A stretch of DNA of 64,000 bases. Origin: an uncultured Methanosarcinales archaeon (GTDB lineage: Archaea; Nanobdellota; Nanobdellia; Woesearchaeales; UBA12501). The stretch lies in NCBI GenBank assembly GCA_964459835.1, contig CAYWPA010000001.1:1601-65600 (forward strand). Reading direction: 5' to 3'. The translations under genes were made by a program, and so were the position numbers. Within the stretch, counting starts at the first letter, position 1; each line of letters opens with the position of its first letter. The notes beneath the pieces are model-generated. The model saw only the letters and a list, made by a program, of their open reading frames with translations, made no database searches and was not told the DNA's origin. Below are positions 6-60,270 of the stretch, in pieces.

Positions 6-788
6 ATGACTTGGAATATACAGTATGGCACATTATGCGGGCCGTTGAATGAAAGCAAGAGAAGGCTTCACATGTATTTTCTTCCTTCTTTTGCAAATCT
101 GGACGGCATTGCAAGAAAAATAAAATTAACTGGCGCGGATATCGTTGTTCTGAATGAAGTTGACGCTGGCTCTCCAAGAACAGGCTTTAGAAACCAGGCT
201 AAATATGTTGCCGATAAGGCAGGATATTCGTATCATACTTACTTCAGCACAGTCATTGTTCCTAGAATAGTAACAGGCCATTATACTGCTGTGCTGTCAA
301 AAGAACCTGTTCATCTGGAAAAGAAAATGCTCAGGCATAAGAATGTCGGAGTTGTAAGGACAAGTGCAGAAGGAATTGACTATACTGTCATTGCCGTTCA
401 CCTTGACCACCGAGGAAACAAGATAGTCGAAGACCTGCCTTTCCTGGCCGGACTTGTTGGCGAGCAAAATGGAATGTATATGGCTGTTGGAGATTTTAAT
501 TTTTATGATGGGTTGCTGGAAGTATTTCTTAACCACGTCAATAATGGAACAACAAGACTTGTTCACAGCGGAAGCAAAGAACCAACATGGCCTGTCAAGC
601 CAGGGAGAAAACCGGATAATGGTTATCCTTACTACAGGCTCGACCACATCTTAGTTTGCCCTGATCTTGAAATTAAAGAAGAAAGAGTTGTAAAAACAAT
701 TCGCTCTGACCATTATCCAGTTGTTGCTAGATTAGAGCCAAAGTTAGAAGAAAGAGTTGAAGAAATAAAAGCAGTAGGGCCAGCGTAA
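6..788 (+). CDS. endonuclease/exonuclease/phosphatase (EEP) family protein
   Basis: 260-aa ORF; C-terminal motifs RLDHILV and SDHYPVVA typical of the DNase I-like EEP fold. Confidence 0.55.
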   Translation: MTWNIQYGTLCGPLNESKRRLHMYFLPSFANLDGIARKIKLTGADIVVLNEVDAGSPRTGFRNQAKYVADKAGYSYHTYFSTVIVPRIVTGHYTAVLSKEPVHLEKKMLRHKNVGVVRTSAEGIDYTVIAVHLDHRGNKIVEDLPFLAGLVGEQNGMYMAVGDFNFYDGLLEVFLNHVNNGTTRLVHSGSKEPTWPVKPGRKPDNGYPYYRLDHILVCPDLEIKEERVVKTIRSDHYPVVARLEPKLEERVEEIKAVGPA

Positions 789-1106
789 GCCGCCTTCTGT
801 AAGAGCCAAACAATAAAGATTTATTGCGATGCTCTTTCTTGGCATTTAACTTAGCCTCATATGCAGCAATAAATGCTGCTGAGTTGCACAAGCCAGGGCT
901 CACCGTTTCACCCATTCCTTAAGGAACGTCTGCTGGTTATCTCGGCTCTGTCGCCAAAGCCTTCGCAAGCGTCATCCTCCCAAAAGGTGGTATCGTTTCT
1001 GAGTGGTTGCCTTCCTTTTCAGGAACTCCCAATGGAGAGTAGCTAACCATTAATAATGTGGGCGGACTTTCCTCAGTTACCCGAAAGCCAAGCTCTGGCC
1101 CTACTG
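772..1106 (-). ncRNA. rnpB: RNase P RNA
   Basis: Minus strand carries GAGGAAAGTCCGCCC (P4 5' strand), GGGTGAAACGGTG, and ACAGAAGGCGGCTTAC (P4 3' strand, complementary to AAGTCCGCC with one bulge). A terminal P1 helix CAGTAGGGCCAG/CTGGCCCTACTG encloses about 335 nt. Confidence 0.8.
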
Positions 1107-18886: not shown

Positions 18887-18908
18887 CCCAAATTAAAAAA
18901 TAAAAAAT

Positions 18909-19364
18909 TTATTTGCTCAGCACTTTGTCAATTGAAAGGTATCTGCTTCCTTCCAATGCCAAGTGTATAGATGCTCCAAGCAAGCCTATGTCTTTTATTA
19001 AGCCGGCTGCGTTGAACATCCCTGGAATTGTTCCTGTTGCATCAAGCACTATTCCTGACACGATGAAGATCAGCAATAATACTGCTGTTCCCAATGCAGC
19101 AAACCTTGTTATCAATCCTATTAACAAAAGCACTCCCAAGATAAGCTCTGCAAGACCAAGCAAAAATACTATAGTAGCTGCCGGCATGAAAGGTATAACC
19201 TTGTCAATTGGCGGCGCTGCTCCAAGAAACAGCTTTCCTATGGCTGCATATATAAAAACAGCTGCAATACCTAAGCGCAGAATAAGGTTGGCAATGTTCA
19301 TCTTTTTTTCCTGTTCCATTTTTAAGCCTCCGAACCTCTTTTTAAGAGAATAAGGAATAAGCAT
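18909..19364 (-). CDS. DoxX family membrane protein
   Basis: LILRLGIAAVFIYAAIGKLF DoxX-like N-terminal helix and 4 TM; immediately upstream of sdhA on the same strand; start may be at an internal Met. Confidence 0.55.
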   Translation of the reverse strand: MLIPYSLKKRFGGLKMEQEKKMNIANLILRLGIAAVFIYAAIGKLFLGAAPPIDKVIPFMPAATIVFLLGLAELILGVLLLIGLITRFAALGTAVLLLIFIVSGIVLDATGTIPGMFNAAGLIKDIGLLGASIHLALEGSRYLSIDKVLSK

Positions 19365-19390
19365 ATTTAAAGTTAATGCTTAAAGAAGTC

Positions 19391-19540
19391 CTATTTCCTA
19401 GGCAGCCTTTCCTTTTTGTGCTTTACCCTTATATGCGCTTCTAAAGCCTTGACGTGCTTGTGACAGTAAGGGCAGCTTCCTGCTGTTGTCTTCTCTACAA
19501 ACTTCGGCAGCTTTGTTTTTCCGTAGACTGGTTTGACCAT
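19391..19540 (-). CDS. small C2H2-type zinc-finger protein (49 aa)
   Basis: Not in the ORF track (<60 aa); MVKPVYGKTKLPKFVEKTTAGSCPYCHKHVKALEAHIRVKHKKERLPRK, C-x2-C-x9-H-x4-H. Confidence 0.4.
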   Translation of the reverse strand: MVKPVYGKTKLPKFVEKTTAGSCPYCHKHVKALEAHIRVKHKKERLPRK

Positions 19541-19699
19541 TTTGGGTACCTCTTGGGTAAGCAACTTTGTGAGTCTATTTAAATATTTCTATTAATAATA
19601 AAAACAAAAAATTTAATTATTTGTGCTCTCAATCAGTGCTTCTACATTACTTGCTATCTCTGAAATTGCTAATGTTTCCAGCCCTTCCCAAACATATAA

Positions 19700-20317
19700 T
19701 TAATAGGTGTTCTGAACATAATCAACAGATATTGCTTCTGTTGATTCATCAAGTTGTGTTGCTGGGGGCGGATCTATAAGTGATATAAATTTAATTTCTG
19801 TTTCCTTTGATAAATTCCAAAAAAATTGTTCTTGTATTGAAATTGCTAACATATTATAAAGATAATCACTATACAAAACTTCAGCATGGTATTTCTTGAT
19901 AACATTTAATGCTTCTTTTTTAGTTACATTTTCGTAAAACATTATATTAAGTTTTACATTATGATTTTCTACAGCATAATTATATACACCATCTTCTAAT
20001 ATATAATCTTGGACTTTTCTTACTTCCTTCTCCTTCTTTAGCTCTTCCTCTATAATATACTTCAGCACATTAGGCTGGTCAGGCCTTTTAACTTCAACTA
20101 CAGGCAAAGGCTCTCCACCAAATGGCCAGATGCTTTTCTTGGTTGATGATTCAGCAGAAGTTTCGTCAGCAACAGAACCATTCTCTGTTTTATTCTCTGT
20201 TTTAGTTGCGTCTATAACTCGTGCAGAATCATCTTTTGATAAACCTACAAATATTATTAGCAAAGCAACTACAAAAACAACAGCAATGCAAATTCCGACA
20301 ATATTCTTTGCTTTCAT
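19700..20317 (-). CDS. membrane-anchored hypothetical protein
   Basis: N-terminal TM helix then a soluble domain. Confidence 0.4.
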   Translation of the reverse strand: MKAKNIVGICIAVVFVVALLIIFVGLSKDDSARVIDATKTENKTENGSVADETSAESSTKKSIWPFGGEPLPVVEVKRPDQPNVLKYIIEEELKKEKEVRKVQDYILEDGVYNYAVENHNVKLNIMFYENVTKKEALNVIKKYHAEVLYSDYLYNMLAISIQEQFFWNLSKETEIKFISLIDPPPATQLDESTEAISVDYVQNTY

Positions 20318-20358
20318 GGTATTTCGAATGTTAGGCCTCCTGAGAGTAGGATTTCAAT

Positions 20359-21213
20359 TTATCCCTTCAGCAGCTTAACAATATCTGCCGGAACTTCAGC
20401 TACCTCAACGCCTGCTTCTTTCAAGGCTTTAATCTTTGTCTCTGCTGTTCCGGATTTTCCGGAGATCAAAGCGCCTGCATGGCCCATTGTTTTTCCAGGA
20501 GGAGCAGTTTTTCCAGCAATAAATGCAACAACCTTTTTCTTCATTTGCTTGATGTACTCTGCAGCAGTCTCCTCTGCATCTCCGCCTATTTCGCCAACCA
20601 AAACAATTTTTTCTGTTCCATCATCGTGCTCAAACATCTCAAGAACGTCAACGATATCCATACCAACAACAGGATCTCCTCCTATGCCTACAACAGTTGA
20701 CTGGCCTATTTTGTTTTGCGTCAGTAAATTTACAAACTCATAAGTCAAAGTGCCTGAACGGGAAATCACTCCAACTTTTCCTTTCTTAAACAAATAATCA
20801 GGTATGATGCTTATGTTGCATTCGCCTGCTGTAACTATCCCAGGGCAGTTAGGGCCGATAACAATAAGATTTTTTTTCTTTGCAAAATTAATGACCTCAA
20901 GAGTGTCATGCACTGGCATGTGCTCTGTTATTATTACAATATTCAGCCCATTCTCCAGAGCTTCAATAGCAGCATTTTTTGCATAAGGCGCAGGAACAAA
21001 AAGGCAGCTCCATGAGGCAGGATGCTCTGCCAATGCCTCTTTTACAGAATTATAAACAGGAATCCCTGAAACATTCTTTCCTTTTTTCCCTGGAGTAACA
21101 CCTGCAACAACCTTAGTGCCATAGCTCTTCATGAGCTTTGCTTCCATGCTCCCCCTGCTTCCGGTTATTCCCTGGATAATAACCTTTGTTTCCTTGCTTA
21201 TCAGAATTGACAT
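20359..21213 (-). CDS. sucD: succinyl-CoA synthetase alpha subunit
   Basis: Start set at MSILISKETKVIIQGITGSRG (matches the SucD N-terminus); CoA-binding and phosphohistidine-loop region. Confidence 0.9.
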   Translation of the reverse strand: MSILISKETKVIIQGITGSRGSMEAKLMKSYGTKVVAGVTPGKKGKNVSGIPVYNSVKEALAEHPASWSCLFVPAPYAKNAAIEALENGLNIVIITEHMPVHDTLEVINFAKKKNLIVIGPNCPGIVTAGECNISIIPDYLFKKGKVGVISRSGTLTYEFVNLLTQNKIGQSTVVGIGGDPVVGMDIVDVLEMFEHDDGTEKIVLVGEIGGDAEETAAEYIKQMKKKVVAFIAGKTAPPGKTMGHAGALISGKSGTAETKIKALKEAGVEVAEVPADIVKLLKG

Positions 21214-21214
21214 C

Positions 21215-21748
21215 TTACTTTTTCCTGAAATCCCCTTTAAGCATGCAGAACATATGCACATCCTGGAATTTTCCGCTTATATATGATCGCTTCCTTAGCA
21301 ATCCTTCGTAATTTAAGCTCAGCTTAATCGCCAGCCTTTTTGCCTCAAGATGCTCAGTCGGGCACGGGAACTCCACCCTGTTCAATCCGAGAGACTTAAA
21401 CCCGTAGCCCATCAAGGCTTCGCACGCCTCTACTCCGTAATCCTTTCCCCTGAACGGCTTTCCAATCCAATACCCAAGCTCCGCATACTTGTCGTTTATA
21501 TTTATGTTGTTGAACTCAACACCACCTACCAAATAATTGGAAGAGTTTTCAATTATTGCATAAGAAAATGCTGTTTTCTTTTTCATATTTTCTTCTGCTT
21601 TTTTTATAAACAGCTTTGCATGCTTTAAGGTGTAAGGATAAGGGATATGTGTAAAAGAAGCTACCTTTCTGTCATTTGCAAGCTTTACTAAATTTGCTGC
21701 ATCCTTTTCCCTGAACTGCCTTAAGGTTATATTTTTTGCCTTGATCAT
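21215..21748 (-). CDS. GNAT family N-acetyltransferase (RimJ/RimL-like)
   Basis: 177 aa; acetyl-CoA-binding-like GYGFKSLGLNRVE region; sits between sucC and sucD. Confidence 0.6.
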   Translation of the reverse strand: MIKAKNITLRQFREKDAANLVKLANDRKVASFTHIPYPYTLKHAKLFIKKAEENMKKKTAFSYAIIENSSNYLVGGVEFNNININDKYAELGYWIGKPFRGKDYGVEACEALMGYGFKSLGLNRVEFPCPTEHLEAKRLAIKLSLNYEGLLRKRSYISGKFQDVHMFCMLKGDFRKK

Positions 21749-22842
21749 TTTACCGTTGAAATTATTTTTTTTACAGCTTCTTCCATTGTGCTTATGGAGT
21801 GAATCCCGTCTTTATCTAAAATCTTTTTTCCGGCTTCCTCATCAATACCTGTAATCCTGACTACCATAGGGATTTTGATTCCGAATTTTTTCTTGTAGTC
21901 AATAATTCCTTTTGCTACTTCCTTGCAGCTTGTAAGGCCTGCAAATATATTAATAAGTATTCCCCCTGGCTTTTTCATCATGCAGATTTCCATTGCCTTT
22001 TCCATTACATCTTCTCCGCTTCCTGCGCCTACATCAAGGAAATTGGCGGGCTTTCCTCCGTATAAGCTAATTAAATCCAAAGTCGCCATAACCATGCCTG
22101 CGCCGTTTCCTATTACAGCTATGTTTCCGTCAAGCTCAACATAGCCGAGGCCGAGCTTCTTTGCCTTTTTCTCTATTTCTGTTCCTTCAAATTTTGTCTT
22201 GAGCTTCTGCCTGAATAAGGCATTGTCGTCAATGATTATTTTTGAGTCAGCTGCAACAAGCTTGTTGTCTGAAACAACCAATGGATTGATCTCAACAATA
22301 GTTGCATCTTTTTCTTTCATTATTTTGTACAGCTTTGTTATCAGCTCAAGAATGTTTTCTTTTGCCTTAAAGTTGCTGATCAATGAAGATATTTTTGCTA
22401 TGTTTTCTGAGCTCAATTCAAAGAAAGGAAATTTTATTATCTTATCAGGATTTTTCTCTGCAAGCTCCTCTATATCAACTCCACCTTCAAATGAGAACAG
22501 CAACATGATGCCTTTGTGCTTTCTGTCAACAGCCAATGAAATATACAGCTCATCATCAACAGACAGCTTTTCCTCAACAAGAATCTTCTTTGGTATCATT
22601 CCTTTTATTTCCTTCTCGAAAAGCTTTTTTGCCTCTGTTTCTGCAAACTCCTGCGAAGAAGAAACTATTCCTCCGAGCTTTCCCCTATGGCCTGTGAGAA
22701 CCTGACTTTTCAGGACAACATCTCCTCTTATTTTGATTAGATTTTTCTTAAGCTCTTTTGTGCTAGAAATCACAAACCCTTTTGGGACAGAAACACCATA
22801 CTTGGAAAATATCTCCTTCCCCTCATATTCCATCAGTTTCAT
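21745..22842 (-). CDS. sucC: succinyl-CoA synthetase beta subunit (ATP-grasp)
   Basis: MKLMEYEGKEIFSKYGV N-terminus, ATP-grasp and CoA-ligase domains. Confidence 0.9.
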   Translation of the reverse strand: MKLMEYEGKEIFSKYGVSVPKGFVISSTKELKKNLIKIRGDVVLKSQVLTGHRGKLGGIVSSSQEFAETEAKKLFEKEIKGMIPKKILVEEKLSVDDELYISLAVDRKHKGIMLLFSFEGGVDIEELAEKNPDKIIKFPFFELSSENIAKISSLISNFKAKENILELITKLYKIMKEKDATIVEINPLVVSDNKLVAADSKIIIDDNALFRQKLKTKFEGTEIEKKAKKLGLGYVELDGNIAVIGNGAGMVMATLDLISLYGGKPANFLDVGAGSGEDVMEKAMEICMMKKPGGILINIFAGLTSCKEVAKGIIDYKKKFGIKIPMVVRITGIDEEAGKKILDKDGIHSISTMEEAVKKIISTVK

Positions 22843-22879: not shown

Positions 22880-23980
22880 TTAAGCATTAAATAATATGCA
22901 TATATATATATCTCTATCGTAAATTCCTTTTGTCTTATCAACCCAGACAACCCTTCCTGAGTCTATAATAGGGTTTGTCTGAAGGCCTTCTGCTGTAGTT
23001 ACAGGAAATATCTCCTCTTTGTTCAGGCTGTAAGCGTATATGTCTCCATCTCCATACCTGTAGTCAAGCCATACAACATAATCTCCGTTTATCTCTGGCT
23101 GCTCCTGAATTGCGCTGTCTGCTGTTAATGGGATTTCCTCATCAAGCCTTAAATCATACAAGTAAATATCGCCTGCTCCGTGTCTTCTATCCTTCCATAC
23201 AATAAAGTTTCCGTAGATTCTTGGCTCTTCCTGGTGTTCGCCATCTATCGTTATTCTTGTTTCCTTTTTTGAAGAAATGTTGTACATGTAAATATCGTTA
23301 TTTTCGTTCCTGTTGTCATCATAAACAATAACATCCATGTAAATATCTGGATTTCCTTGGTCCCTGAAAAGGTCTGTTATCTGGATTTCCTTTCCTGCTT
23401 CTATCTCGTATACAAAAATATCTAGGTTGGCGTTTCTATTGTCTTCCCATACAACAAAGTTTTCATATATTTTAGGATGCTTCTGGTCTTTCTCGTCAAA
23501 AGTTATTCTTGTCTCTTTCTTTGTTTTCAGGTCATACATGTAAAGGTCTCCATTTCCATTTCTGTTGTCATGATAAACTATTTTGTTGCCGAAGATTGAG
23601 GGCTGGTCCTGGTCATAAGGATTGTCTGTTATCTGTATCGTTTTGCCTGTCATTATGTCAAACATATAAACATCGTTGTTGTTTGATGTTCTTCTTGTGA
23701 AGACTATTTTGTTTCCTTGAATATAAGGCTCTATGTCGACAGTAGGCTCTTCAGTTGATATTAGGTATGTTTCTCCTTTTTTATACTGAGACTGCTTTGT
23801 TTCTTCTTTCACAGGCTCTATCTTTGTCTGTTTTTCTGATTCTTGCTCTTTTATGTGCTCTGTTGCAGGCCCTGCATAATCAACAGACTTAATATAGTCA
23901 ATTGCAGCTCTGTCTAAGAAAATCCCCAATCCTAATACTGCAACCAGCAATATTGCGAAGCTTATGATTACTGCCTTCAT
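22880..23980 (-). CDS. secreted beta-propeller repeat protein
   Basis: N-terminal TM/signal; six tandem roughly 47-aa repeats (P.IYGN.IV..D.RNG..DIYMYD), TolB/PD40-like. Confidence 0.55.
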   Translation of the reverse strand: MKAVIISFAILLVAVLGLGIFLDRAAIDYIKSVDYAGPATEHIKEQESEKQTKIEPVKEETKQSQYKKGETYLISTEEPTVDIEPYIQGNKIVFTRRTSNNNDVYMFDIMTGKTIQITDNPYDQDQPSIFGNKIVYHDNRNGNGDLYMYDLKTKKETRITFDEKDQKHPKIYENFVVWEDNRNANLDIFVYEIEAGKEIQITDLFRDQGNPDIYMDVIVYDDNRNENNDIYMYNISSKKETRITIDGEHQEEPRIYGNFIVWKDRRHGAGDIYLYDLRLDEEIPLTADSAIQEQPEINGDYVVWLDYRYGDGDIYAYSLNKEEIFPVTTAEGLQTNPIIDSGRVVWVDKTKGIYDRDIYICILFNA

Positions 23981-24113: not shown

Positions 24114-24752
24114 TTAAAGCAGATAAATCACATTGCTCGTGTTCGGGCAGGCTTCTTTGTGAATATCGTGCTTAAGCCGTTCTAAATCCTCTACAGTATC
24201 AACATCGCTCCTTACTTCAAGCAGAGCAAAGCCTATGCCTTTTTCTTCCAGATTTCTTTTCTGCTGCTCCAAAACCTTATCCGTGCTCCAATTTATGCCT
24301 GAAAAAATATCTGTATCAACGCCTTTGTTTATTCCAATCAGATAATACCCGCCGTCTTTTGCAGGACCTAAGACAGCTTCATTATCGTTCAGCAAAGCAA
24401 GAGCTTTCTTTATATTCCTTTCAAGAATATCAGGAATGTCAGAGCCAATGATTATAACTTTTTGAAACTCATTCAGCAGCAAATCAAAGCAGTTCTTCAT
24501 CCTCTCGCCCAAATCCTTTCCTTCCTGCGGAATGTAATTTACTGTTCCATACAGTTTTCTCATATCATCTTCTTTTTCTTTCGGAGAAAAGCAGATAAAC
24601 AGGTCGTACTCTTTGTTGTCGTGAAGGATAAGCAAGTCTTTAACAAATGCTATCTGCAGCTTTGCTGCATTTTCCTCGCCAATATCTACTGCAAGCCTTG
24701 TCTTTACTTTTCCTTTTTCAGGATATTTTGTGAATATGGCTAATGCGTCCAT
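24114..24752 (-). CDS. DUF2064 (TIGR04282-like) nucleotidyltransferase-fold protein
   Basis: N-terminal ALAIFTKYPEKGKVKTRL signature; paired with the adjacent GT2. Confidence 0.6.
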   Translation of the reverse strand: MDALAIFTKYPEKGKVKTRLAVDIGEENAAKLQIAFVKDLLILHDNKEYDLFICFSPKEKEDDMRKLYGTVNYIPQEGKDLGERMKNCFDLLLNEFQKVIIIGSDIPDILERNIKKALALLNDNEAVLGPAKDGGYYLIGINKGVDTDIFSGINWSTDKVLEQQKRNLEEKGIGFALLEVRSDVDTVEDLERLKHDIHKEACPNTSNVIYLL

Positions 24753-25423
24753 TATAAGTACAGTCTAGCTAATTTGTCAGGCTTTGTGCCTAAAAAATAC
24801 AAAAGCCTTATAAGGCCCATTTTAAAATACATTTTCGTTATGCCTTTTTTCAAAAGCCTTCTTCCTGATGTAGATGCTTTGCTTCTTATTATCTTTATCC
24901 TTTTTTTGCTGTACTTTTCTATAAGCCTTTTTGAAAAGTCGACGTCCTCCATGATTCTTATGTTATTGAAGCCTCCCAGCTCACTAAATGCCTGTTTCTT
25001 TACAAATATTGCCTGGTCTCCGAATATAACCTTTGATGTTAAAATCCTGTAATTTGACCTTGCTGCTATTATACTAAGTAGTGGATGCCTCTCTTTAAAC
25101 CTTATGCAGAAGCCGCCAGCAACAAAGTCTGTATTTTTTATTTTGCTTATTTCTTCAAAGGCATTTTGAGGAAGCAAAGTGTCGGCATGCAAAAATAATA
25201 TGATATCTCCTTTTGCTTTCTTTGCTCCGGCGTTCATCTGCCCCGCCCTTCCTTTTTGAGAGCTAACAATCTTTACGCCTAATTTTTTTGCAATCTTTAC
25301 AGTATTATCTCTGCTTTCGCCGTCAGAAACAATAATCTCGCATTTTCCATGCTTTTTCACACTATTGATAGCATCGGCAATGTTTTTTTCTTCATTTAGT
25401 GTCGGAATAACTACAGATATCAT
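24752..25423 (-). CDS. glycosyltransferase family 2 (TIGR04283-like)
   Basis: MISVVIPTLNEEKNI and DGESRD motifs. Confidence 0.7.
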   Translation of the reverse strand: MISVVIPTLNEEKNIADAINSVKKHGKCEIIVSDGESRDNTVKIAKKLGVKIVSSQKGRAGQMNAGAKKAKGDIILFLHADTLLPQNAFEEISKIKNTDFVAGGFCIRFKERHPLLSIIAARSNYRILTSKVIFGDQAIFVKKQAFSELGGFNNIRIMEDVDFSKRLIEKYSKKRIKIIRSKASTSGRRLLKKGITKMYFKMGLIRLLYFLGTKPDKLARLYL

Positions 25424-26166
25424 TTGGGGTGATATTTCCTTTTTTCTATATATTTTTTTCCGGCAATCGAGAATATGATTAATGCGGCGAATAGCAAAAC
25501 AGGGATTAGGACTTCTGTTGCCATCATGTCCATAAAGCCAAAGTCTCCTGCCAGAACCTTCTCTCCAAGAGTTGCAAACAAGTAAGTATAGATGAATGTT
25601 CCCGGTATTATCCCCAAAGCTGTCGCCAGGAAATAATCCTTTAACGAAATCTTTGTCAAGCCAGAGCCAAAGTTTAAGATATTGAACGGAACAACTGGAA
25701 TCAGCCTTGGAATAAAGACAGCCATAAAGCCTTTTTCCCCAATCTTTGTGTCAAGCTTCTTTGCCTTTCCCCTTGTTATTGACACTACAAAATCCCTTCC
25801 AAGATACTTTGCAGACATAAAGCACAGTGTTGCCCCTATAACAGCTCCGATCCAGTTGTACAGAAAGCCTTTTGCGGTGCCGAAAAGAATCGCGCCTGCA
25901 AATGTAAGAACTGTCCCTGGGATAAGAAAGATAGTTCCGGCTGCGTATATAAAAATAAATATCACAGGGCCTAAAATTCCAAACCCTTCCACAAACCCCT
26001 TTATGGCTTCAGGTGTTATGCCGGCTCCAATATCTGTAAACTTAAATATGTAAACGACACCGATTAAAGCCAGAGCAAACAATACGAATTTGATAATTGG
26101 TCCGCTGTTTTTTGCCATAATATGGTATTTTGCTTTTCTATTAAAAAATGTTGTGCTTAATATCAA
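25420..26166 (-). CDS. DedA/TVP38 family membrane protein
   Basis: VPFNILNFGSGLTKISLKDYFLATALGIIPGTFIYTYL signature. Confidence 0.7.
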   Translation of the reverse strand: MILSTTFFNRKAKYHIMAKNSGPIIKFVLFALALIGVVYIFKFTDIGAGITPEAIKGFVEGFGILGPVIFIFIYAAGTIFLIPGTVLTFAGAILFGTAKGFLYNWIGAVIGATLCFMSAKYLGRDFVVSITRGKAKKLDTKIGEKGFMAVFIPRLIPVVPFNILNFGSGLTKISLKDYFLATALGIIPGTFIYTYLFATLGEKVLAGDFGFMDMMATEVLIPVLLFAALIIFSIAGKKYIEKRKYHPK

Positions 26167-26969: not shown

Positions 26970-27728
26970 TCAACTTTTTTTGCTTATTCTGTACAGCATG
27001 AAAACAGAAATCAGAAACATTGGGATGCTAAGCACCTGTCCCATTGTCAATGGAAATGTAGAAGGTAAAGTCTGGTACTCTTTGAAGTACTCCACAAAAA
27101 ACCTTAGCAATCCATACAGTGCGCCGAAGCTCCAGAATAAAAATCCTTTTGGAAGGTTTTTTACTGACTTCATATTCCATAAAATTCCGAATATCAATAA
27201 ATTCTTAGCTGCTTCATATAACTGAGAAGGATGCCTAAATCCTTCATATCCTTTAAACTTCACGGCCCATGGAATGCTTGTTACTCTTCCTACAATTTCG
27301 CCGTTGAAAAAATTCCCAACCCTTACAAAAGCAGCGCCTAATGCAATTGGTATTACAGCAATATCTGCAATATCATAAAACTGGATTTTTTTCTTTTTTG
27401 AATACCACCACATTACAAGCACTCCTCCTATTACTGCACCGTGGCTTGCTAATCCTCCTTTCCATACATACAAAATCTGCTCAGGATTTGAAAAATAATA
27501 TCCTGGATTATAGAATAAAACCTCTCCAAGCCTTGCCCCGACTATGAGGCCTATCATCATGAAAAGAAACAGCTCTTCTATATTCTGCCTTTTGATCCCT
27601 CTTTCTTCTGCAAGCTTAATTATGATAAAATAACCTATAAGAAATGCAAGGGCCATCAGAATTCCATAATACCTAATCTGAAAGGGCCCAACCTCTGCCA
27701 AAATCGGGTTTATATTGTGGTAAAACAT
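26970..27728 (-). CDS. lgt: prolipoprotein diacylglyceryl transferase
   Basis: Matches the Lgt PROSITE-type signature RVGNFFNGEIVG and the HPSQLYEA motif; 7 TM. Confidence 0.8.
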   Translation of the reverse strand: MFYHNINPILAEVGPFQIRYYGILMALAFLIGYFIIIKLAEERGIKRQNIEELFLFMMIGLIVGARLGEVLFYNPGYYFSNPEQILYVWKGGLASHGAVIGGVLVMWWYSKKKKIQFYDIADIAVIPIALGAAFVRVGNFFNGEIVGRVTSIPWAVKFKGYEGFRHPSQLYEAAKNLLIFGILWNMKSVKNLPKGFLFWSFGALYGLLRFFVEYFKEYQTLPSTFPLTMGQVLSIPMFLISVFMLYRISKKS

Positions 27729-27756: not shown

Positions 27757-28437
27757 TTACTGCAGCTCAGCGTCAATTATCTGCTTGAATGCAGAGAACG
27801 GCTGCGCTCCTACAATCTTCTTTCCGTTTACAAAGAAAGAAGGAGTTCCTGAAACTCCTGCAGCCTGCCCATCAGTCAAGTCTTTCTGCACTTCTGACGC
27901 ATACTTTCCTGAGTCTAAGCAGCTGTTGAATTTTGCTGTATCAAGGCCAAGCTCATCTGCGTACTTTTTCAGATCGATTACGCCAATGGCTGCCTGGTTG
28001 TCAAAAATCTTGTTATGCATCTCCCAGAACTTTCCTTGGTCATCTGCGCATTCAGCTGCCTCTGCCGCTTTCTGCGCATATGGATGTATGCTTGTTAAAG
28101 GAAAGTCCCTGTAAACTAATTTTGCTTTTCCTGTTTTAATGTATTCTTTTTCCAATTGTGGAAGCGTATCAGAATAGAACCTTGCACAGAAAGGACACTG
28201 GAAATCTGAAAACTCTATTATCTCTACAGGCGCGTTCTTGTTTCCCTTAACAGGATCATCATCTGCGCTAACTTCTACTGTTGGCGCTGCTGAAGGCTGT
28301 GTAGGAGAAGGGCTTGGTGCTGCTCCTGTTTCTCCCCTGAAGAATAAAGCCCATATCAAAACTATTGCAAGAATTACTGTAGCTATTTTCCAAAAATCCT
28401 CTTTTTTCAATGAAAACAAAACATCGCTTTTTGCCAT
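27757..28437 (-). CDS. membrane-anchored DsbA-like thiol:disulfide oxidoreductase
   Basis: IEFSDFQCPFCARFY thioredoxin-fold CxxC; N-terminal TM plus Pro/Ser-rich linker. Confidence 0.8.
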   Translation of the reverse strand: MAKSDVLFSLKKEDFWKIATVILAIVLIWALFFRGETGAAPSPSPTQPSAAPTVEVSADDDPVKGNKNAPVEIIEFSDFQCPFCARFYSDTLPQLEKEYIKTGKAKLVYRDFPLTSIHPYAQKAAEAAECADDQGKFWEMHNKIFDNQAAIGVIDLKKYADELGLDTAKFNSCLDSGKYASEVQKDLTDGQAAGVSGTPSFFVNGKKIVGAQPFSAFKQIIDAELQ

Positions 28438-28775: not shown

Positions 28776-29168
28776 ATGAAAAAAATTTTGCTTCTTATCG
28801 CAGTGCTTCTATTGATGACAGGTTGTGCTAAAAGCTATGACTATGGAAAGCCCGCAGAGCCGCAGAAAACATATGTTGTTGAAGAAGAGGCGCAAGCTGA
28901 TGCAGAACAATCAGAGCCTGAAACATCAACAGTTAGTGTAACGATACAGAACTTTGCCTTCAGCCCTGCAACAATAACTGTGAAGAAAGGCACAGCTGTT
29001 ACTTGGACAAATATGGATTCAGCTCCGCATACAGCAACAGGAGATGGCTTTGACACAGGAGTTTTAAAGAAAGGCGAGAGTGGCAGCATTACTTTCAATG
29101 AAGCGGGAACATTTGACTATACCTGCACAATTCATCCAAGCATAAAGGGGAAGGTAATAGTGCAATGA
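28776..29168 (+). CDS. cupredoxin-fold lipoprotein
   Basis: Signal with LLLMTGC lipobox-like Cys; C-terminal YTCTIHPSIKGKVIV cupredoxin copper-site-like motif; GGTGG SD-like sequence upstream. Confidence 0.65.
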   Translation: MKKILLLIAVLLLMTGCAKSYDYGKPAEPQKTYVVEEEAQADAEQSEPETSTVSVTIQNFAFSPATITVKKGTAVTWTNMDSAPHTATGDGFDTGVLKKGESGSITFNEAGTFDYTCTIHPSIKGKVIVQ

Positions 29169-30222: not shown

Positions 30223-32652
30223 CTACAGTTCTTTTACAGCCTTTTCTATTTCCTCTGTTGCCCGGATATATGAACCATGCTTTACAATAATTGGCTTCCC
30301 TATATTTACTTTTGTCCTTGCAAATTTAGGGAATCTCTTCCATCTCGGAAGAACTTTTATTACATTCTCCACCTTTATCGGAACAACAGGAATGCCCATC
30401 TCTACAGCCAGTATTCCTATGCCCTGCTTAAAGCTTTGAATCTCCCCTGTCATTGTTCTTGCTCCCTCAGGATAAATCAAAATATTCCATTCTTTTCCTA
30501 CTAGCCTTCCTGTATATTTTAGGCTTCTCCTGAAGCCTTTTTGCTGTGGAAACGGGTAAATATTATAGAATATGGTTGCAAGGTGGTATAAAAGCCATTT
30601 CCCAAAGCCTTTGTATTTCAGGTTGTGCCTGAAGAAAAACTCCTGCCATGCTGCAACTGCTGTTTTAAGGGAAAACCTCAGCGGAAGCTTCATCAGTATT
30701 ATTGGCGTGTCAAAATGGCTTTGGTGATTTGCTGCAAAGATAACGGGGCTTTTCAATCCTTTTAAGTTCTCCCTTCCATAAATCCTTGGCCAGCTGAAAA
30801 ATCTTGCAATTTGGTTTGTTAAAGGCTGAAGTACAAAACGGAAAAATCTTGCTGCTAGGGAAAGCGCCCAATGCTTGAATATTGGCTTTTCCTCGATTAT
30901 TATTTTTTGTTTTATTATTTGTTCAAGCTCTTTTATTTTTGTGCTAGGTATCATTCTTTCTTCGTCTATCTCAATATTGAACTCCTGTTCCAGCAAAGAA
31001 ATCAATTCAACAATGTCAATTGAAGACAAGCCAAGATCTTGTAAAGTAGCAGCATCTGTTATTTTTTTATTGGTTAATTGTGAAATTATGCTATAAATCT
31101 TGTTCTTTTTCTTTACAATAACAGCTTCTTTTTTTGTTTTCAATGCTTCCTTAACAGCAAACTTTTTTATTTTTAGAGTTGTTGTTCTTGGAAAATCCTC
31201 ATATGGCCAGACAGAGTAATCCTTTATTTTCTGTGAAGAGTCAAGCTTTTCGTTTGCTTTGTCTACAATGTTTTTTGCCTTTGCTCCTTCTTTCAGCAGC
31301 AAAACAGCATATACCTCTTCTCCTTTCTTTCCATCCATTCCGATAACACAGCTATCTGCTACACCTTCTATTTTGTTCAGGATATTTTCAATATCTTCTG
31401 CATACACATTGATGCCTGCTGCTGTTACTATAACATCTTTTTTCCTTCCTTTCAGATAAAGAAATCCTTCATTATCAAATCTTCCTAAATCGCCTGTTTT
31501 AAGCCATCCATCCTCAAAAAGCTCTTTTGTCTTTGTCGGGTTCTTGTAGTAGCCTTGGGTTATATTATCGCCTTTTGCAACCACCTCTCCGTTCTTTATG
31601 CTAACTTCTACACCGGTAATGGCCCTTCCAACTGAGCCAATCTTGTGCTTTTTTGTCGTGTTTGCAGTTAAGATTGGAGAAGTTTCTGTTAAACCATATC
31701 CCTGAATAACAAGTATCCCTATGCTGTTGTAGAATCTTTCAAGCTCTTCATTCAGTGTTGCTCCGCCTGAAATAAAATAATTAATATTGTTTCCAAGCTT
31801 TTTATGGATTTTTCTGAACAATAATTTTCTTAGTGAAAACGGAATATATTTAGCAGCTTTCAATGCTATGAAAAACTGATTTTCTTTGTTTTTCTTTTTT
31901 ACTTCCTGCAGAATGCCTGAATATATTAATTCCAAAATTCTTGGAACAAATGCTGCATTTGTTATTTTTTCATCTTCAAAGGCCTCAAAGAGAGAACTTG
32001 GCTTTAGTGTCTTTACATAGACAATGCTTGCTTTTTGCGAAAGTGGAACAAAAAATCCTGTCATCTGCTCAAAGACATGGCTCAATGGAAGAACAGAAAG
32101 AAACTTGAATTTTGATTTTACTTTTTCAACTGAATTTATAGCATTTAAGTTTGAAATAAAATTCTTGTGTGTTAAAATAACTCCTTTTGGATTTCCTGTT
32201 GTTCCGGAAGTATATATTATCTCAGCAATGTCGTTTTCATTAACATCAGTAGAGTATGTCCCTTCTTCTAATGAATCAAGCAATTCCTCAACAAAAACTG
32301 TTTTTTGCTTTAATTTTGGCTTGTGCCTTGTCTGAAACACCAATTTTGCCTGAACAATATTCTGTATTTTCCTTGCAAACACAATATCTGACCTTAAATC
32401 CACTGGCACGACTATTACTCCTGCTAAAAACGCCCCCAAAAGCATGATAGCATATTCTATGCCGTTATAGCTCCAGACTATGATCATGTCTCCTTTATTT
32501 ACTTTGTTTTTCTTAAGAAAATAGGCGAATTTAGAAGAAAGCTTGTATAGCTCTTTGTAAGTATAGGCAAATTTTCTATACTCTTTTCTATCAATAACAG
32601 CAACTTTGTTTGATTCCTTAAATCCTTCAATTAAATCAGCTAAGGTTTTCAC
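30223..32652 (-). CDS. fatty-acyl-AMP ligase / carrier-protein / 1-acyl-sn-glycerol-3-phosphate acyltransferase (PlsC) tripartite fusion
   Basis: AMP-binding motifs IIYTSGTTGNPKGV, GYGLTET, GDLGRFDNEGFLYLKGRKKD; PP-binding LQDLGLSSIDIVEL; PlsC motifs NHQSHFD (HX4D) and YPEGAR. Confidence 0.8.
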   Translation of the reverse strand: MKTLADLIEGFKESNKVAVIDRKEYRKFAYTYKELYKLSSKFAYFLKKNKVNKGDMIIVWSYNGIEYAIMLLGAFLAGVIVVPVDLRSDIVFARKIQNIVQAKLVFQTRHKPKLKQKTVFVEELLDSLEEGTYSTDVNENDIAEIIYTSGTTGNPKGVILTHKNFISNLNAINSVEKVKSKFKFLSVLPLSHVFEQMTGFFVPLSQKASIVYVKTLKPSSLFEAFEDEKITNAAFVPRILELIYSGILQEVKKKNKENQFFIALKAAKYIPFSLRKLLFRKIHKKLGNNINYFISGGATLNEELERFYNSIGILVIQGYGLTETSPILTANTTKKHKIGSVGRAITGVEVSIKNGEVVAKGDNITQGYYKNPTKTKELFEDGWLKTGDLGRFDNEGFLYLKGRKKDVIVTAAGINVYAEDIENILNKIEGVADSCVIGMDGKKGEEVYAVLLLKEGAKAKNIVDKANEKLDSSQKIKDYSVWPYEDFPRTTTLKIKKFAVKEALKTKKEAVIVKKKNKIYSIISQLTNKKITDAATLQDLGLSSIDIVELISLLEQEFNIEIDEERMIPSTKIKELEQIIKQKIIIEEKPIFKHWALSLAARFFRFVLQPLTNQIARFFSWPRIYGRENLKGLKSPVIFAANHQSHFDTPIILMKLPLRFSLKTAVAAWQEFFFRHNLKYKGFGKWLLYHLATIFYNIYPFPQQKGFRRSLKYTGRLVGKEWNILIYPEGARTMTGEIQSFKQGIGILAVEMGIPVVPIKVENVIKVLPRWKRFPKFARTKVNIGKPIIVKHGSYIRATEEIEKAVKEL

Positions 32653-32987
32653 TTTAACAGCAGCACGACTTGAGCAATTGCATAGTCCTTATCATGGCTT
32701 ATGCTTACATCAACGTCTTCTATGATTTCTTTTAGCTCGTTTGCCAGCAACAAAGCTGGCTTTCCTGTTTTTTGTTTTTTAAGCTCAACTTTCATCCATT
32801 CCGGCTTTTTTCCTAGAGCTTTAAAAAAAGCTTCCTTTGCAGCAAATATTCCAGCAATACTTTCAGCTTTGTAATACTTCATTTCTGATTTATGCAGCAC
32901 TTTTTTCATAAATTCTTTGTTCAGCATAAGTTTTCCTACTTTTGGGATATATACAATATCCACACCTGTTCTTATTTTTGATTTCAT
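32649..32987 (-). CDS. acpS: holo-[acyl-carrier-protein] synthase (4'-phosphopantetheinyl transferase)
   Basis: GVDIVYIP ... SISHDKDYAIAQV AcpS motifs; 4-nt overlap with the fusion gene. Confidence 0.75.
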   Translation of the reverse strand: MKSKIRTGVDIVYIPKVGKLMLNKEFMKKVLHKSEMKYYKAESIAGIFAAKEAFFKALGKKPEWMKVELKKQKTGKPALLLANELKEIIEDVDVSISHDKDYAIAQVVLLLK

Positions 32988-35268: not shown

Positions 35269-35439
35269 CCACTTTTCTAGCTGTTCTTTTGCTTTCTTTT
35301 TAGTCTTGAAAAACTTTGTTTCTGAAACTGACAAATAAGGGATCCTTCTTGTTACCTTAAATCTTTTTTCTGCTTGGCTTTTAAGCTCAATTAAAGAAAC
35401 TTCCCATTTCTTTGCTGGATGCTTTTTTGCCTTTTTCAT
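35260..35439 (-). CDS. small basic protein (59 aa)
   Basis: Not in the ORF track; MKKAKKHPAKKWEVSLIELKSQAEKRFKVTRR...; its ATG overlaps the TGA of the upstream DsbA-like gene (ATGA coupling). Confidence 0.4.
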   Translation of the reverse strand: MKKAKKHPAKKWEVSLIELKSQAEKRFKVTRRIPYLSVSETKFFKTKKKAKEQLEKWLK

Positions 35440-36110: not shown

Positions 36111-36111
36111 T

Positions 36112-36498
36112 TTATGGAAGAGGGCATCCTGTCAGCGCTGATAAGCTTTCCAGAGGCATTACTCCTGCTTCTAATAGCTGCCCTTTTATGCTCCATGTTG
36201 GATAAGCCTTGATCCCAACCTCTTTGCATTCAGGATTTACATCGCAGTCCTTGAAGTCAATGTACCTGAAAGAATCCCCAAACATTTTTTTCTGGTTCTG
36301 GCAGTGTGGGCACCAGTTAGTGCCGTACATCGCTACATCATTCTCTGTCAGGCAGACTGCAAAGCTGTCATATTTTGCTGAGTCTGCTTTCTTTAAATAG
36401 AAAAATAAAGCAATAACAACGATAGCCAAAACAATTCCTGCCCTGAAGTAAAGCTTTTTCTGTTTACTGTCCATTTTATTTTGAAAGTTCTGCGTCAA
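36112..36498 (-). CDS. membrane-anchored thioredoxin-like protein
   Basis: N-terminal TM; MYGTNWCPHCQNQKK CxxC. Confidence 0.7.
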   Translation of the reverse strand: MTQNFQNKMDSKQKKLYFRAGIVLAIVVIALFFYLKKADSAKYDSFAVCLTENDVAMYGTNWCPHCQNQKKMFGDSFRYIDFKDCDVNPECKEVGIKAYPTWSIKGQLLEAGVMPLESLSALTGCPLP

Positions 36499-37480: not shown

Positions 37481-37534
37481 ATATGCACCCCTATAACCAT
37501 TGGATTTTTAGCTGGTTTTTAAAGTTATTGTTTG

Positions 37535-38599: not shown

Positions 38600-38659
38600 A
38601 AGCTTTTATTATAGAAATCCTTATTTATATCTTTCTGTTTATCAAGAAGGATCAAAAAC

Positions 38660-58515: not shown

Positions 58516-60270
58516 ATGGTAAGAATAGCTGTTATTGAGGAAGAGAGATGCCACCCTACAGAATGCGGCAACTACCTTTGCATTAGAGTGTGCCCTGTCA
58601 ACAAGATAGGGGACGAGTGCATTTACAAGGGAGAAAAAAAGAAAGCGGCTATCAATACTGAGCTCTGCACTGGCTGTGGAATCTGCCCAAAAAGGTGCCC
58701 TTTTGATGCGATACATATAATCAACCTTCCTGAAGAGCTTGACAAGAATCCTATCCATAGGTATGGGGAAAACGGATTTCACCTTTACAATCTTCCTATC
58801 CCTATTTTCGGGAAAGTGGTGGGATTGTTGGGAAGAAACGGAATCGGAAAATCAACAGCAGTAAAAATTCTTGCAGGCTTGCTGAAGCCAAACCTAGGCG
58901 GAGAAAAAGATGCGACACATGAGGAATTGATTGAATACTTTAAGGGAAGCGAAGCGCATCAGTTTATGGAGAAAGTCAGGGATGGAAAAATAAAAGTTTC
59001 ATACAAGCCGCAGCAGGTTGAATTAATCCCTAGAACAGCTTCAGGAACTGTAAAGGAATTGCTTAAGAAGGCAGATGAAAAGGGAGAATGGAAAAATGTT
59101 GCTGAAGAGTTGGATCTAAATGAAGTTTTGGATCATGATGTAAAGAATATTTCGGGTGGAGAGCTGCAAAGGCTTGCAATAGCAGCTGCTGTTTTGAAAA
59201 AGGCAAATGTTTATTTTTTTGATGAGCCTGCCTCTTATCTTGATATCAAGCAAAGAATTAATGTTTCAAAATTCATAAGCAATCTGGCAAATGAGGATAC
59301 TGCAGTTATAGTTGTAGAGCATGACCTTATTATTCTTGATTATATGACTGAATTGATACATGTAATGTACGGAGAAACAGGGGCTTATGGGGTAGTGAGC
59401 CAGACCAAAGCAACAAAAACAGGAATTAATGCCTATCTAGAGGGATTTCTGAAGGAAGAGAATATCAGGTTCAGAGAAAGCAGGATAAAGTTCGCTACAA
59501 GGCCGCCTATGGAAGCCAAGGGCAAGCATATTTTAACATCCTGGAATGGTATAAAGAAGCAGCTCGGAAGCTTCAGGCTCGAGGCATGGCATGGGGATGT
59601 AAAAAGAAATGAAGTTATAGGTATTTTAGGGGAGAATGGAATTGGAAAGACAAGCTTTGTAAAAATGCTTGCAGGAGTTATTGAAGCTGATTCGGGAGAA
59701 ACAGGAGCAAAGCTGAAAGTTTCATATAAACCGCAGTATATTGATATTTCCGGAGATGACTTAGTCATGTCTATTTTGCAGAATGCAATAAAAAAATACG
59801 AAGCCCAGATCATAAAGCCACTGGGTCTGAAAGAATTGCTTATGAGAAAAGTTGGGGACCTTTCAGGCGGAGAGCTGCAAAGGGTTGCCATTGCTTACGC
59901 TCTTTCACAGGAAGCTGACATTTATTTGCTGGATGAGCCTTCTGCTTATCTTGATACAGAGCAAAGGCTGAATGTTGCCAAAGTTATCAGGGATTTGATG
60001 GAGCTGAAAGGAGCAACATGTATGGTTGTTGACCATGACTTGCTATTTATTGATTATTTGTCTGATGAGATAGTTGTTTTTGGAGGAAAGCCTGCTGTTC
60101 ACGGAGTTGTCAACGGCCCGTTTATCATGGAAGAGGGAATGAATATGTTTCTTAGAGACATTAGCATAAGCATGCGAAGGGATGCAGAAAGCAACAGGCC
60201 AAGGATAAACAAGCTTGGCTCACAGATGGACAGGAAGCAGAAGTCCGAGGGGAAACTGTACTATGCCTGA
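58516..60270 (+). CDS. abcE1: ABCE1 (RNase L inhibitor / ribosome recycling ATPase)
   Basis: N-terminal 4Fe-4S domain (CIRVCPVN...CTGCGICPKRCP) plus two ABC cassettes (GRNGIGKST, GENGIGKTS, LSGGELQR x2). Confidence 0.95.
   Translation: MVRIAVIEEERCHPTECGNYLCIRVCPVNKIGDECIYKGEKKKAAINTELCTGCGICPKRCPFDAIHIINLPEELDKNPIHRYGENGFHLYNLPIPIFGKVVGLLGRNGIGKSTAVKILAGLLKPNLGGEKDATHEELIEYFKGSEAHQFMEKVRDGKIKVSYKPQQVELIPRTASGTVKELLKKADEKGEWKNVAEELDLNEVLDHDVKNISGGELQRLAIAAAVLKKANVYFFDEPASYLDIKQRINVSKFISNLANEDTAVIVVEHDLIILDYMTELIHVMYGETGAYGVVSQTKATKTGINAYLEGFLKEENIRFRESRIKFATRPPMEAKGKHILTSWNGIKKQLGSFRLEAWHGDVKRNEVIGILGENGIGKTSFVKMLAGVIEADSGETGAKLKVSYKPQYIDISGDDLVMSILQNAIKKYEAQIIKPLGLKELLMRKVGDLSGGELQRVAIAYALSQEADIYLLDEPSAYLDTEQRLNVAKVIRDLMELKGATCMVVDHDLLFIDYLSDEIVVFGGKPAVHGVVNGPFIMEEGMNMFLRDISISMRRDAESNRPRINKLGSQMDRKQKSEGKLYYA

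Follow-up and report, generated by a model that had tools for sequence, protein, structure and literature searches.

A bacterial-type prolipoprotein diacylglyceryl transferase gene in a Woesearchaeota-type archaeal genome

Introduction

Does an archaeon of the DPANN assemblage (Diapherotrites, Parvarchaeota, Aenigmarchaeota, Nanoarchaeota, Nanohaloarchaeota) encode a genuine prolipoprotein diacylglyceryl transferase, Lgt, and if so, which proteins and which lipid would it use, and where would it come from? The question is raised by an open reading frame (ORF) at positions 26970-27728 of a 64,000-nucleotide stretch of DNA, here called the window (positions 1,601 to 65,600 of contig CAYWPA010000001.1, assembly GCA_964459835.1, deposited as an uncultured Methanosarcinales archaeon and placed by GTDB in the Woesearchaeales). 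A sequence-only reading of the window had proposed a bacterial-type Lgt with lipobox-bearing cupredoxin substrates in an archaeal context. From the analysis presented here we consider it quite probable that the gene represents an intact Lgt resident in a Woesearchaeota-type DPANN genome, and that it belongs to lineages that are widespread in metagenome-assembled genomes (MAGs) of Woesearchaeota and Nanoarchaeota, likely derived from old bacterial horizontal gene transfer in one or two events and inherited vertically thereafter.

Such a gene is unexpected, as Lgt has been described as a family that all bacteria possess and archaea lack (PMC13251419, PMC12462473, PMC6098224). Papers from 2018 to 2026 report no homolog of Lgt, signal peptidase II or Lnt in any archaeal genome, which was the premise behind the search for the archaeal proteins AliA and AliB.

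Results

Identity of the window protein

The product of lgt (Table 1) matches PF01790 (LGT) with 246.7 bits (E = 2.7e-73) over model positions 1-239 of 240, about ten times the Pfam gathering cut-off of 24.9 bits, and the NCBIfam equivalog TIGR00544 with 189.5 bits against a cut-off of 118.9. Both strings of the Lgt signature that the sequence-only reading had recognized are present, RVGNFFNGEIVG at residues 136-147 and HPSQLYEA at residues 166-173, and its assignment is thus borne out by strings and profiles alike. The sole solved relative recovered by a PDB sequence search is the E. coli Lgt (5AZB/5AZC, E = 1e-32). In a pairwise alignment, in which the E. coli sequence agrees with that of the 5AZB alignment, the two proteins are 29% identical, and the head domain of the window protein is shorter by about 22 residues. 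All residues that are essential or important in the E. coli enzyme are nevertheless kept, with Y26, H103, G104, D129, R143 and N146 corresponding to Y21, H96, G97, D122, R136 and N139 of the window protein, and E151, G154, H196, Y235, R239 and E243 to E144, G147, H166, Y205, R209 and E213. The same catalytic residues are invariant or nearly so in alignments of 25 and 33 sequences of the archaeal clade, and since they are conserved across sequences this diverged, purifying selection for the canonical Lgt reaction is indicated.

An AlphaFold2 model computed with 25 clade sequences as input displays seven long helices at high confidence (predicted local distance difference test 90.6, predicted template-modelling score 0.86). 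Foldseek comparison of this model with the PDB returned a single significant match, again 5AZB (E = 1.4e-15, template-modelling scores of 0.85/0.76). The ORF can be securely assigned as a full-length bacterial-type Lgt with an intact active site, for which the corresponding enzyme activity is predicted by homology. With bacterial Lgt it shares the full-length profile match, the seven-helix fold and the essential residues, and candidate lipobox-bearing secreted proteins are encoded in the same genome, while the DPANN host, the modest identity and the shortened head set it apart.

The archaeal AliA/AliB system (arCOG02177/arCOG02178, Haloferax volcanii) has in common with the window protein the presumed thioether lipidation of the lipobox cysteine on proteins exported by the Sec or Tat pathway. 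AliA, in which two arginines are conserved, has been proposed to descend very remotely from Lgt, yet its similarity to PF01790 is marginal, with only 29% HHpred probability (PMC12462473). Because the window protein is in contrast a strong member of PF01790, it is by profile similarity an Lgt, not AliA.

Archaeal residence and relatives

The contig is confirmed to be archaeal and not bacterial, because an archaeal-type RNase P RNA and the genes for ABCE1, Endo_dU, TrmI and Trm14 flank lgt on both sides (Table 1). The archaeal surroundings described in the sequence-only reading (ABCE1, TrmI, DUF99, Trm14) are hence real, with the RNase P RNA as an additional marker, and a ValRS gene was likewise found in the window. 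Lgt, the adjoining cupredoxin, ABCE1 and an 809-residue fusion protein, to which we return below, are all encoded on one NCBI contig of 221,996 bp, and the neighbourhood of lgt recurs without any change in an independent Logan assembly (run ERR3478686). A test for recent horizontal transfer based on GC content and codon usage, relative to the 64-kb window, was negative, with lgt being typical in composition (GC z = -0.26, third-position GC z = +0.14, codon-usage rank 26/55).

To judge from its relatives, the window lgt is no one-off: it is a member of large Lgt clades resident in MAGs of Woesearchaeota and Nanoarchaeota. A search of 5.8 billion proteins gave 120 top homologs with identities of 48-61%, and the seven that carry an organism name are all archaeal ('Candidatus Woesearchaeota', 'Candidatus Nanoarchaeia' and 'archaeon' MAGs) and already annotated as prolipoprotein diacylglyceryl transferase. 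It is on these named relatives, on those of the fusion protein and on synteny with an NCBI MAG (L086, below) that the Woesearchaeota-type assignment of the host is based. Clade members lie beside the genes for ribosomal protein S17e and a tRNA-splicing (tRNA intron) endonuclease at one locus (L083), and beside Spt5-NGN and NFACT-R at another (L084/L085), the latter from a marine organism that the collection lists in 48 blocks. Among relatives whose flanks could be used, the closest (L086, NCBI MAG GCA_964604755.1) encodes an Lgt of 61% identity within a block that is collinear with the window. This block comprises a 128-residue protein, a DsbA-like protein, a 274-residue membrane protein, glutaredoxin (Grx)/Lgt, SucC, SucD and SdhA, as well as ValRS and CysRS, and its proteins are 30-73% identical between the two genomes (Grx 73%, ValRS 65%, SdhA 57%). 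Since the clade is found beside archaeal genes and the block is collinear with that of L086, lgt is, as far as these comparisons indicate, stably settled in this lineage and passed on vertically.

The immediate neighbours of lgt concern thiol redox chemistry. The Grx gene directly adjoins lgt in L086 too, in reversed order, and this adjacency together with a nearby DsbA-like gene is all that the window and the 61% relative have in common near lgt. The DsbA-like protein encoded upstream of lgt possesses an N-terminal membrane anchor without a lipobox, is a near-miss to the NF041057 family of thioredoxin-like (seleno)lipoproteins (159 bits versus 190), and its gene probably forms one transcription unit with lgt. 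At two other loci, L082 and L087, Pkinase genes are located directly upstream of lgt.

Origin of the archaeal Lgts

The best bacterial Lgts among the matches listed in a GTDB scan are 35-45% identical and derive from Bacteroidota, Ignavibacteriota, Chlorobiota, Desulfobacterota and Nitrospirota. Even with a query alignment of window-type sequences only, the matches in the GTDB and metagenome scans were mostly bacterial Lgts, with at least five archaeal-type loci in the former and at least nine in the latter. Assigned by the nearest labelled neighbour, the 80 metagenomic Lgts among the matches listed separate into 9 archaeal-type and 71 bacterial-type sequences, none being ambiguous.

The archaeal proteins form two subfamilies, A, to which the window protein belongs (motifs GGLASHG ... 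EIVGR ... EFFKEF), and B (GGLSFHGG ... ELYGR ... EFFRxPDPQLGF). Mean identity between A and B is 47%, and each is 37-43% identical to two bacterial groups that share only 35% with each other. As the archaeal subfamilies are closer to particular bacterial groups (40-43% identity) than these groups are to one another, the archaeal Lgts appear nested in bacterial diversity, which argues for transfer from bacteria to archaea and not for a split at the domain level. An old bacterial transfer is the likely origin, its direction and age being read from these comparisons, and most likely it took place in one or two events.

Candidate substrates

The window contains exactly three genes, among about 79 likely ones, for proteins that combine a positively charged N-terminus, a hydrophobic core and a cysteine at +1, and all three are cupredoxin-like. 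These are the three Cys-terminated lipobox-like signals pointed out in the sequence-only reading, at 28776, 29540 and 45214, and each conforms to a PROSITE PS51257-style rule, which we employed together with a tabulation of the +1 residue in place of a strict G+LPP expression that rejects two of the three and whose control pattern is crude. For the second, the signal (ITLGC) exists, but position 29540 is the 3' end of its ORF, which begins at 30187. The lipobox cysteine is distinct from the copper-site cysteine in each of the three proteins.

Candidate substrate 1 carries the signal MKKILLLIAVLLLMTGC with Cys17 and passes both the PROSITE-type and the G+LPP pattern. Its copper ligands are H85, C117 and H120, with isoleucine in the axial methionine position. 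In this C117-x2-H120-x2-I123 arrangement the axial residue is methionine in 108 and isoleucine in 5 of 120 homologs; a non-coordinating axial residue is in other cupredoxins usually accompanied by a higher redox potential. A lipobox is present in 69 of the 120 homologs (58%) and a plain hydrophobic anchor in 43. The lipobox-bearing ones span Firmicutes, Actinobacteria and bacteria of the candidate phyla radiation, and two bear archaeal labels (one from an 'archaeon' MAG, the other from an Aenigmatarchaeota MAG), whereas the nearest named relatives are mostly bacterial (Moranbacteria, Firmicutes, Actinobacteria). The signal of candidate substrate 2, MKKLVLIIVVFIVFITLGC, includes Cys19, the sole cysteine of the protein, and passes the PROSITE-type rule but fails G+LPP. 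Candidate substrate 3, with a signal ending in ...IIFIILAIAGC and Cys23, also passes the PROSITE-type rule. Taken together, the window cupredoxins are plausible substrates of the Lgt, as identified by their signals.

Outside the window, three lipobox genes at archaeal loci display textbook lipoboxes, for example MKKILAILISLTLLLIAC and MRKFLLIIAVLALVSLMVLGC. Textbook lipobox signal peptides at other archaeal lgt loci are located at L021 3285-3791, L021 11085-11510, L082 5416-5997 and L084 8507-8716. The lipobox gene immediately downstream of lgt in L021, with MKKALILVLILAILILPAC, fits the G+LPP pattern alone, and the signal in L082 is borne by a cyclophilin-type peptidyl-prolyl isomerase. Abundant lipoproteins have been predicted in DPANN with SignalP 6 (Hong et al. 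2025, PMC12462473).

The neighbouring acyltransferase fusion

A fusion of AMP-binding, PP-binding and PlsC-type acyltransferase domains is encoded 2.5 kb from lgt (Table 1). A plausible role for this protein would be to acylate (lyso)phospholipids with fatty acids that it activates itself, and it could hence bear on the pool of lipid donors, and the phosphopantetheinyl transferase encoded beside it would activate its carrier domain. The fusion family forms a Woesearchaeota/Pacearchaeota clade of 44-65% identity, and relatives of the same architecture occur in Geobacteraceae, Desulfuromonadaceae and Saccharimonadales at about 41%. Fusion and transferase represent a second bacterial-type membrane-lipid gene set in these archaea.

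The fusion resembles E. coli Aas in combining an acyl-adenylating domain and a PlsC-type acyltransferase with a phosphopantetheinyl carrier, and differs from it in the reversed order (adenylation, carrier, acyltransferase) and in having the carrier fused in cis. We ruled out an Aas equivalog, as the scores remain far below the cut-offs (NF006386, 154 bits versus 1221; NF005291, 151 versus 1349). E. coli Aas re-acylates the lyso-phosphatidylethanolamine that arises from lipoprotein N-acylation.

The syntenic L086 locus lacks an insert of about 6 kb that here carries the fusion and two of the cupredoxins, and the fusion was not seen at the other loci examined. The physical link between fusion and lgt is therefore specific to this genome, and neither L086 nor the other loci examined support a conserved linkage of lgt to the cupredoxins and the acyltransferase module.

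Other genes in the window

The remaining features are collected in Table 1. A dense island of copper and thiol-redox envelope genes occupies 35436-46188. At its edge, the trio of the 274-residue membrane protein, a DsbA-like protein and a 128-residue protein is kept in L086 (7698-9674) at 30%, 52% and 42% identity, respectively. The 274-residue protein has no Pfam or NCBIfam match; a role as DsbB/VKOR-like partner to the DsbA-like protein of the trio is conceivable. No match in Pfam or NCBIfam was found for the 124-residue membrane protein downstream of candidate substrate 1 either.

On the minus strand, 15151-22842 holds respiratory and tricarboxylic acid (TCA) cycle genes in this DPANN genome, of which the Suc and Sdh genes keep their synteny in L086. 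A further minus-strand run (24114-26166) follows immediately downstream of the genes for Grx, a small acidic protein and a ferredoxin. It encodes a DUF2064 protein (CofC-like nucleotidyltransferase), a glycosyltransferase of family 2 and a membrane protein of the DedA/VTT type, and may constitute a membrane-lipid or glycoconjugate module. The tRNA-Thr(CGT) gene overlaps the 5' end of the called ORF 57534-57992 (DUF5676), and the true start of this ORF is therefore probably further downstream.

Table 1. Coordinates of features in the window, counted from its first nucleotide.
Feature	Position	Strand	Remarks
Archaeal-type RNase P RNA (RNaseP_arch)	775..1103	minus	RF00373 144.2 bits vs gathering score 84, full length
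THUMP/Trm14-type methyltransferase	1999-3072		archaeal context marker
DNA gyrase A subunit	5288-7720	minus	DNA_topoisoIV and six GyrA C-terminal repeats
506-residue protein with C-terminal eukaryotic-type protein kinase domain	7953-9473	plus	Pkinase 48 bits
CCG-domain subunit	15151-16023	minus	respiratory/TCA run
SdhB-like Fe-S protein	16020-17168	minus	respiratory/TCA run
SdhA	17165-18886	minus	respiratory/TCA run
DoxX	18909-19364	minus	respiratory/TCA run
SucD	20359-21261	minus	respiratory/TCA run
SucC	21745-22842	minus	respiratory/TCA run
Beta-propeller protein, 366 residues, secreted or anchored	22880-23980	minus	seven TIGR04275 repeats (281 bits), TolB-like similarity
Glutaredoxin-like protein (Grx), 77 residues	26698..26931	minus	PF00462 76.8 bits; 38 bp downstream of lgt, same strand
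lgt, prolipoprotein diacylglyceryl transferase homolog	26970..27728	minus	252 residues, 7 predicted transmembrane helices, short head domain
DsbA-like thioredoxin-fold protein	27757..28437	minus	PF13462 139 bits, PF01323 87 bits; 28 bp upstream of lgt
Candidate substrate 1, small type-1 cupredoxin	28776..29168	plus	PF13473, PF00127; signal peptide, lipobox LLMTG-C17
Multi-pass membrane protein, 124 residues	29165..29539	plus	start overlaps cupredoxin stop by 4 bp
Candidate substrate 2, 215 residues	29540..30187	minus	PF13473 28.7 bits (cut-off 27); lipobox FITLG-C19, acidic linker, cupredoxin-like domain
AMP-binding/PP-binding/PlsC-type acyltransferase fusion, 809 residues	30223..32652	minus	PF00501 225.6, PF00550 33.9, PF01553 63.5 bits
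4'-phosphopantetheinyl transferase	32649..32987	minus	PF01648 43.7 bits; overlaps fusion gene start by 4 bp
Multi-pass membrane protein, 274 residues	34082-34906	minus	near DsbA-like 35436-36110 and 128-residue protein 36112-36498
DsbA-like protein	35436-36110		N-terminal membrane anchor, no lipobox
DsbA-like protein	36476-37480		N-terminal membrane anchor, no lipobox
CorA	37535-38599		copper/thiol-redox island
CopA	38660-40849		copper/thiol-redox island
HMA/DsbD_2/cupredoxin fusion	41108-42541		copper/thiol-redox island
Membrane-anchored MarR/DUF7343 regulator	42600-43157	minus	copper/thiol-redox island; divergent pair with next
Membrane-anchored MarR/DUF7343 regulator	43241-43735	plus	copper/thiol-redox island; divergent pair with previous
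DsbA-like protein	43869-44597		N-terminal membrane anchor, no lipobox
Candidate substrate 3, cupredoxin-like, 121 residues	45214..45579	plus	PF13473 42.9 bits; lipobox LAIAG-C23
tRNA-Thr(CGT)	57935-58006	minus	sole tRNA in 64 kb
ABCE1/RLI	58516..60270	plus	PF04068 Fer4_RLI and two ABC_tran; opposite side of lgt from RNase P RNA
Endo_dU/DUF99	60757-61329		archaeal context marker
TrmI/GCD14	61347-62084		archaeal context marker

Discussion

By homology with E. coli Lgt, a likely course of the reaction can be outlined. Lipobox precursors exported via Sec, here the three cupredoxin-like proteins, would be captured in the membrane, and the lipid would be held by the conserved Arg136 and Arg209 (R143 and R239 in E. 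coli) together with Asn139, Glu144, Tyr21 and His96. The thiol of the +1 cysteine would then attack the glycerol C3 of a phosphatidylglycerol-type lipid, yielding a thioether-linked glyceryl-lipid anchor. This would hold the copper proteins at the outer surface of the membrane, where the transmembrane-anchored DsbA-like oxidoreductases would be their neighbours.

Which lipid serves as donor can be answered in two ways. In the first, the canonical Lgt transfer would draw on ester-linked diacyl phosphatidylglycerol (PG) that is taken up from a bacterial partner, re-acylated by the fusion, or both. We take this possibility seriously, while holding it tentatively. Every PG-binding residue of E. 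coli Lgt is conserved, and the fusion with its phosphopantetheinyl transferase lies close to lgt and belongs to a family widespread in Woesearchaeota and Pacearchaeota. Woesearchaeota are moreover reported to generally lack the geranylgeranylglyceryl phosphate (GGGP) and digeranylgeranylglyceryl phosphate (DGGGP) synthases (PMC8421398), and some, which possess bacterial genes for fatty acids and glycerol-3-phosphate (G3P) dehydrogenase, may live as episymbionts on bacteria (PMC8204110). Because of the fusion, the reported lack of these synthases and the bacterial lipid genes in some Woesearchaeota, a diacyl-PG donor for the window Lgt is reasonable but unproven. Against it stand the fusion adjacency, which is not conserved in L086 and other loci examined, the scores of the fusion far below the Aas cut-offs, and the 64-kb window itself, in which no lipid-backbone genes, neither for PG synthesis nor for the G3P backbone, were found. 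Of the earlier suggestion that an ester-lipid donor ties in with a neighbouring module of fatty acyl-AMP ligase, acyl carrier protein and PlsC, the fusion itself is real, with an AMP-binding domain as its putative ligase part, and the tie to the donor is a hypothesis.

In the second, which we find rather doubtful, the Lgt would have adapted to, or be promiscuous for, archaetidylglycerol and would add a diphytanylglyceryl (archaeol) group, the product that AliA/AliB form in haloarchaea, replacing or supplementing AliA in this lineage. The host is an archaeon, and its Lgt belongs to archaeal clades that are old and diversified and have ameliorated in composition, so that there was time to adapt. 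Thioether-linked archaeol is found on archaeal lipoproteins (PMC12462473, PMC13631571), and the distribution of AliA across DPANN has gaps (PMC12462473). On the other hand, the active site shows no sign of remodelling, its residues being the same as in the bacterial enzyme, the glycerol stereochemistry of archaetidylglycerol is opposite, and the core archaeal lipid synthases are those reported missing from Woesearchaeota (PMC8421398).

A number of observations weigh against a vertically inherited archaeal Lgt acting in lipoprotein maturation. At 19 archaeal-type loci, with the window excluded, 3 of 309 genes bear a lipobox, a non-significant 2.0-fold enrichment (p = 0.19) that becomes 1.0-fold when alternative starts are allowed; the flanks of bacterial lgt gave 6.1-fold, and 4.3-fold with alternative starts. 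Because the enrichment in the archaeal flanks is not significant, lipoproteins may be few in Lgt-bearing archaea. Pooled with the window, the census yielded six cysteines at +1 against 1.27 expected (p = 0.002), a result that we dropped, as half of the matches stem from the window that generated the hypothesis. The proposal that the cupredoxins are Lgt substrates thus finds backing in the frequent lipobox of their family (69/120), but not in these 309 other genes. Within the window, the strict G+LPP pattern is matched by only one of the three lipoboxes. Neither the window nor the 19 other archaeal-type loci yielded an LspA-like ORF, a search that is uninformative on the genome as a whole, given that just 2 of 144 bacterial loci have LspA close to lgt; for that reason we rejected this absence as evidence. 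The query, E. coli LspA with a two-round profile, was positive in Tolumonas (L056, 2e-46) and Sulfurimonas (L030, 4e-10). CN_hydrolase/Lnt was not seen by Pfam among about 70 window ORFs, nor an Lnt-like ORF at the other archaeal-type loci, a search likewise with no power, and Lnt is dispensable in many bacteria. The lack of lipid-backbone genes in the window adds to these points, as does the mirror-image glycerol backbone that a purely archaeal membrane would present to a bacterial-type enzyme. Finally, archaeal monophyly is method-dependent. A neighbour-joining tree of Lgts, albeit crude and with the window sequence on its backbone, is without it, and a quartet bootstrap on plain amino-acid distances goes against it in 224 of 300 replicates, both placing subfamily A with bacteria of the Fibrobacterota-Chlorobiota-Bacteroidota type, whereas under Dayhoff-6 recoding, which damps compositional bias, A and B group together in 262 of 300. 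On the question raised in the sequence-only reading, bacterial transfer versus an archaeal clade, the identities situate these Lgts within bacterial diversity, while the archaeal clade itself is supported by one treatment and opposed by another.

Could the protein then be an Lgt homolog that does not serve lipoprotein maturation, a relic or a form repurposed, for instance, as another glycerolipid transferase, with lipoboxes that are horizontally acquired cupredoxin baggage or chance? The insignificant enrichment in the independent archaeal sample, the largely bacterial nearest relatives of the cupredoxin, the 43 of 120 homologs with a plain anchor and the two G+LPP failures are all in line with this. 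We still regard it as improbable, considering that all residues needed for Lgt catalysis are kept in 25-33 diverged archaeal sequences, that textbook lipoboxes exist at other archaeal loci, and that the sole cysteine of one candidate substrate falls exactly at +1. An artefact, that is, a bacterial gene or contig misassembled or mis-binned into an archaeal MAG, comes to mind since most records are MAGs and DPANN bins are often contaminated, and is effectively refuted by the internal position of lgt between archaeal markers on a 222-kb contig, the identical arrangement in an independent assembly, its typical composition, clade members beside archaea-specific genes on at least four other contigs, and the synteny kept in L086.

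A resident, intact Lgt therefore remains our preferred reading, and it can be extended to bacterial lipoprotein chemistry on a partly bacterial-type membrane. Scavenged diacyl phospholipids, re-acylated by the fusion, would feed Lgt, and S-diacylglyceryl-cysteine would anchor copper and redox proteins at the surface, by extension in many Woesearchaeales. We consider this extension somewhat unlikely. If true, with a diacyl donor, it would mean that in protein lipidation the 'lipid divide' between archaea and bacteria has been crossed in nature, and that archaea, according to lineage, lipidate proteins by one of two systems unrelated to each other, AliA/AliB or Lgt. Were the donor archaetidylglycerol instead, Lgt would be shown to tolerate a mirror-image glycerol backbone.

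A search of a full-text library for literature pairing 'diacylglyceryl transferase' with Woesearchaeota found none, and the pairing with DPANN returned just the 2025 AliA/AliB paper, its preprint, a 2018 review claiming absence and one unrelated paper; among the papers listed, 'lipoprotein' does not occur in the major comparative-genomics papers on DPANN and Woesearchaeota. The archaeal lgt genes, correctly named by annotation pipelines and unremarked in the literature, contradict the claimed absence. The finding is tempered by DPANN genomes being known to be rich in bacterial genes and by pipelines already naming these proteins right, and what it adds is a known enzyme family in a domain reported to lack it, rather than a novel type of system. 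Nonetheless, the premise that archaea lack Lgt is false for Woesearchaeota and Nanoarchaeota MAGs, which surveys based on RefSeq and arCOGs under-sample. The phyletic picture of archaeal lipoprotein biogenesis needs correction, Lgt may fill some of the AliA gaps in DPANN, and the finding is of relevance to the suggested descent of AliA from Lgt. It also offers an experimental handle, either on a bacterial-type lipid transferase working with archaeal lipids or on archaea with bacterial-type lipids.

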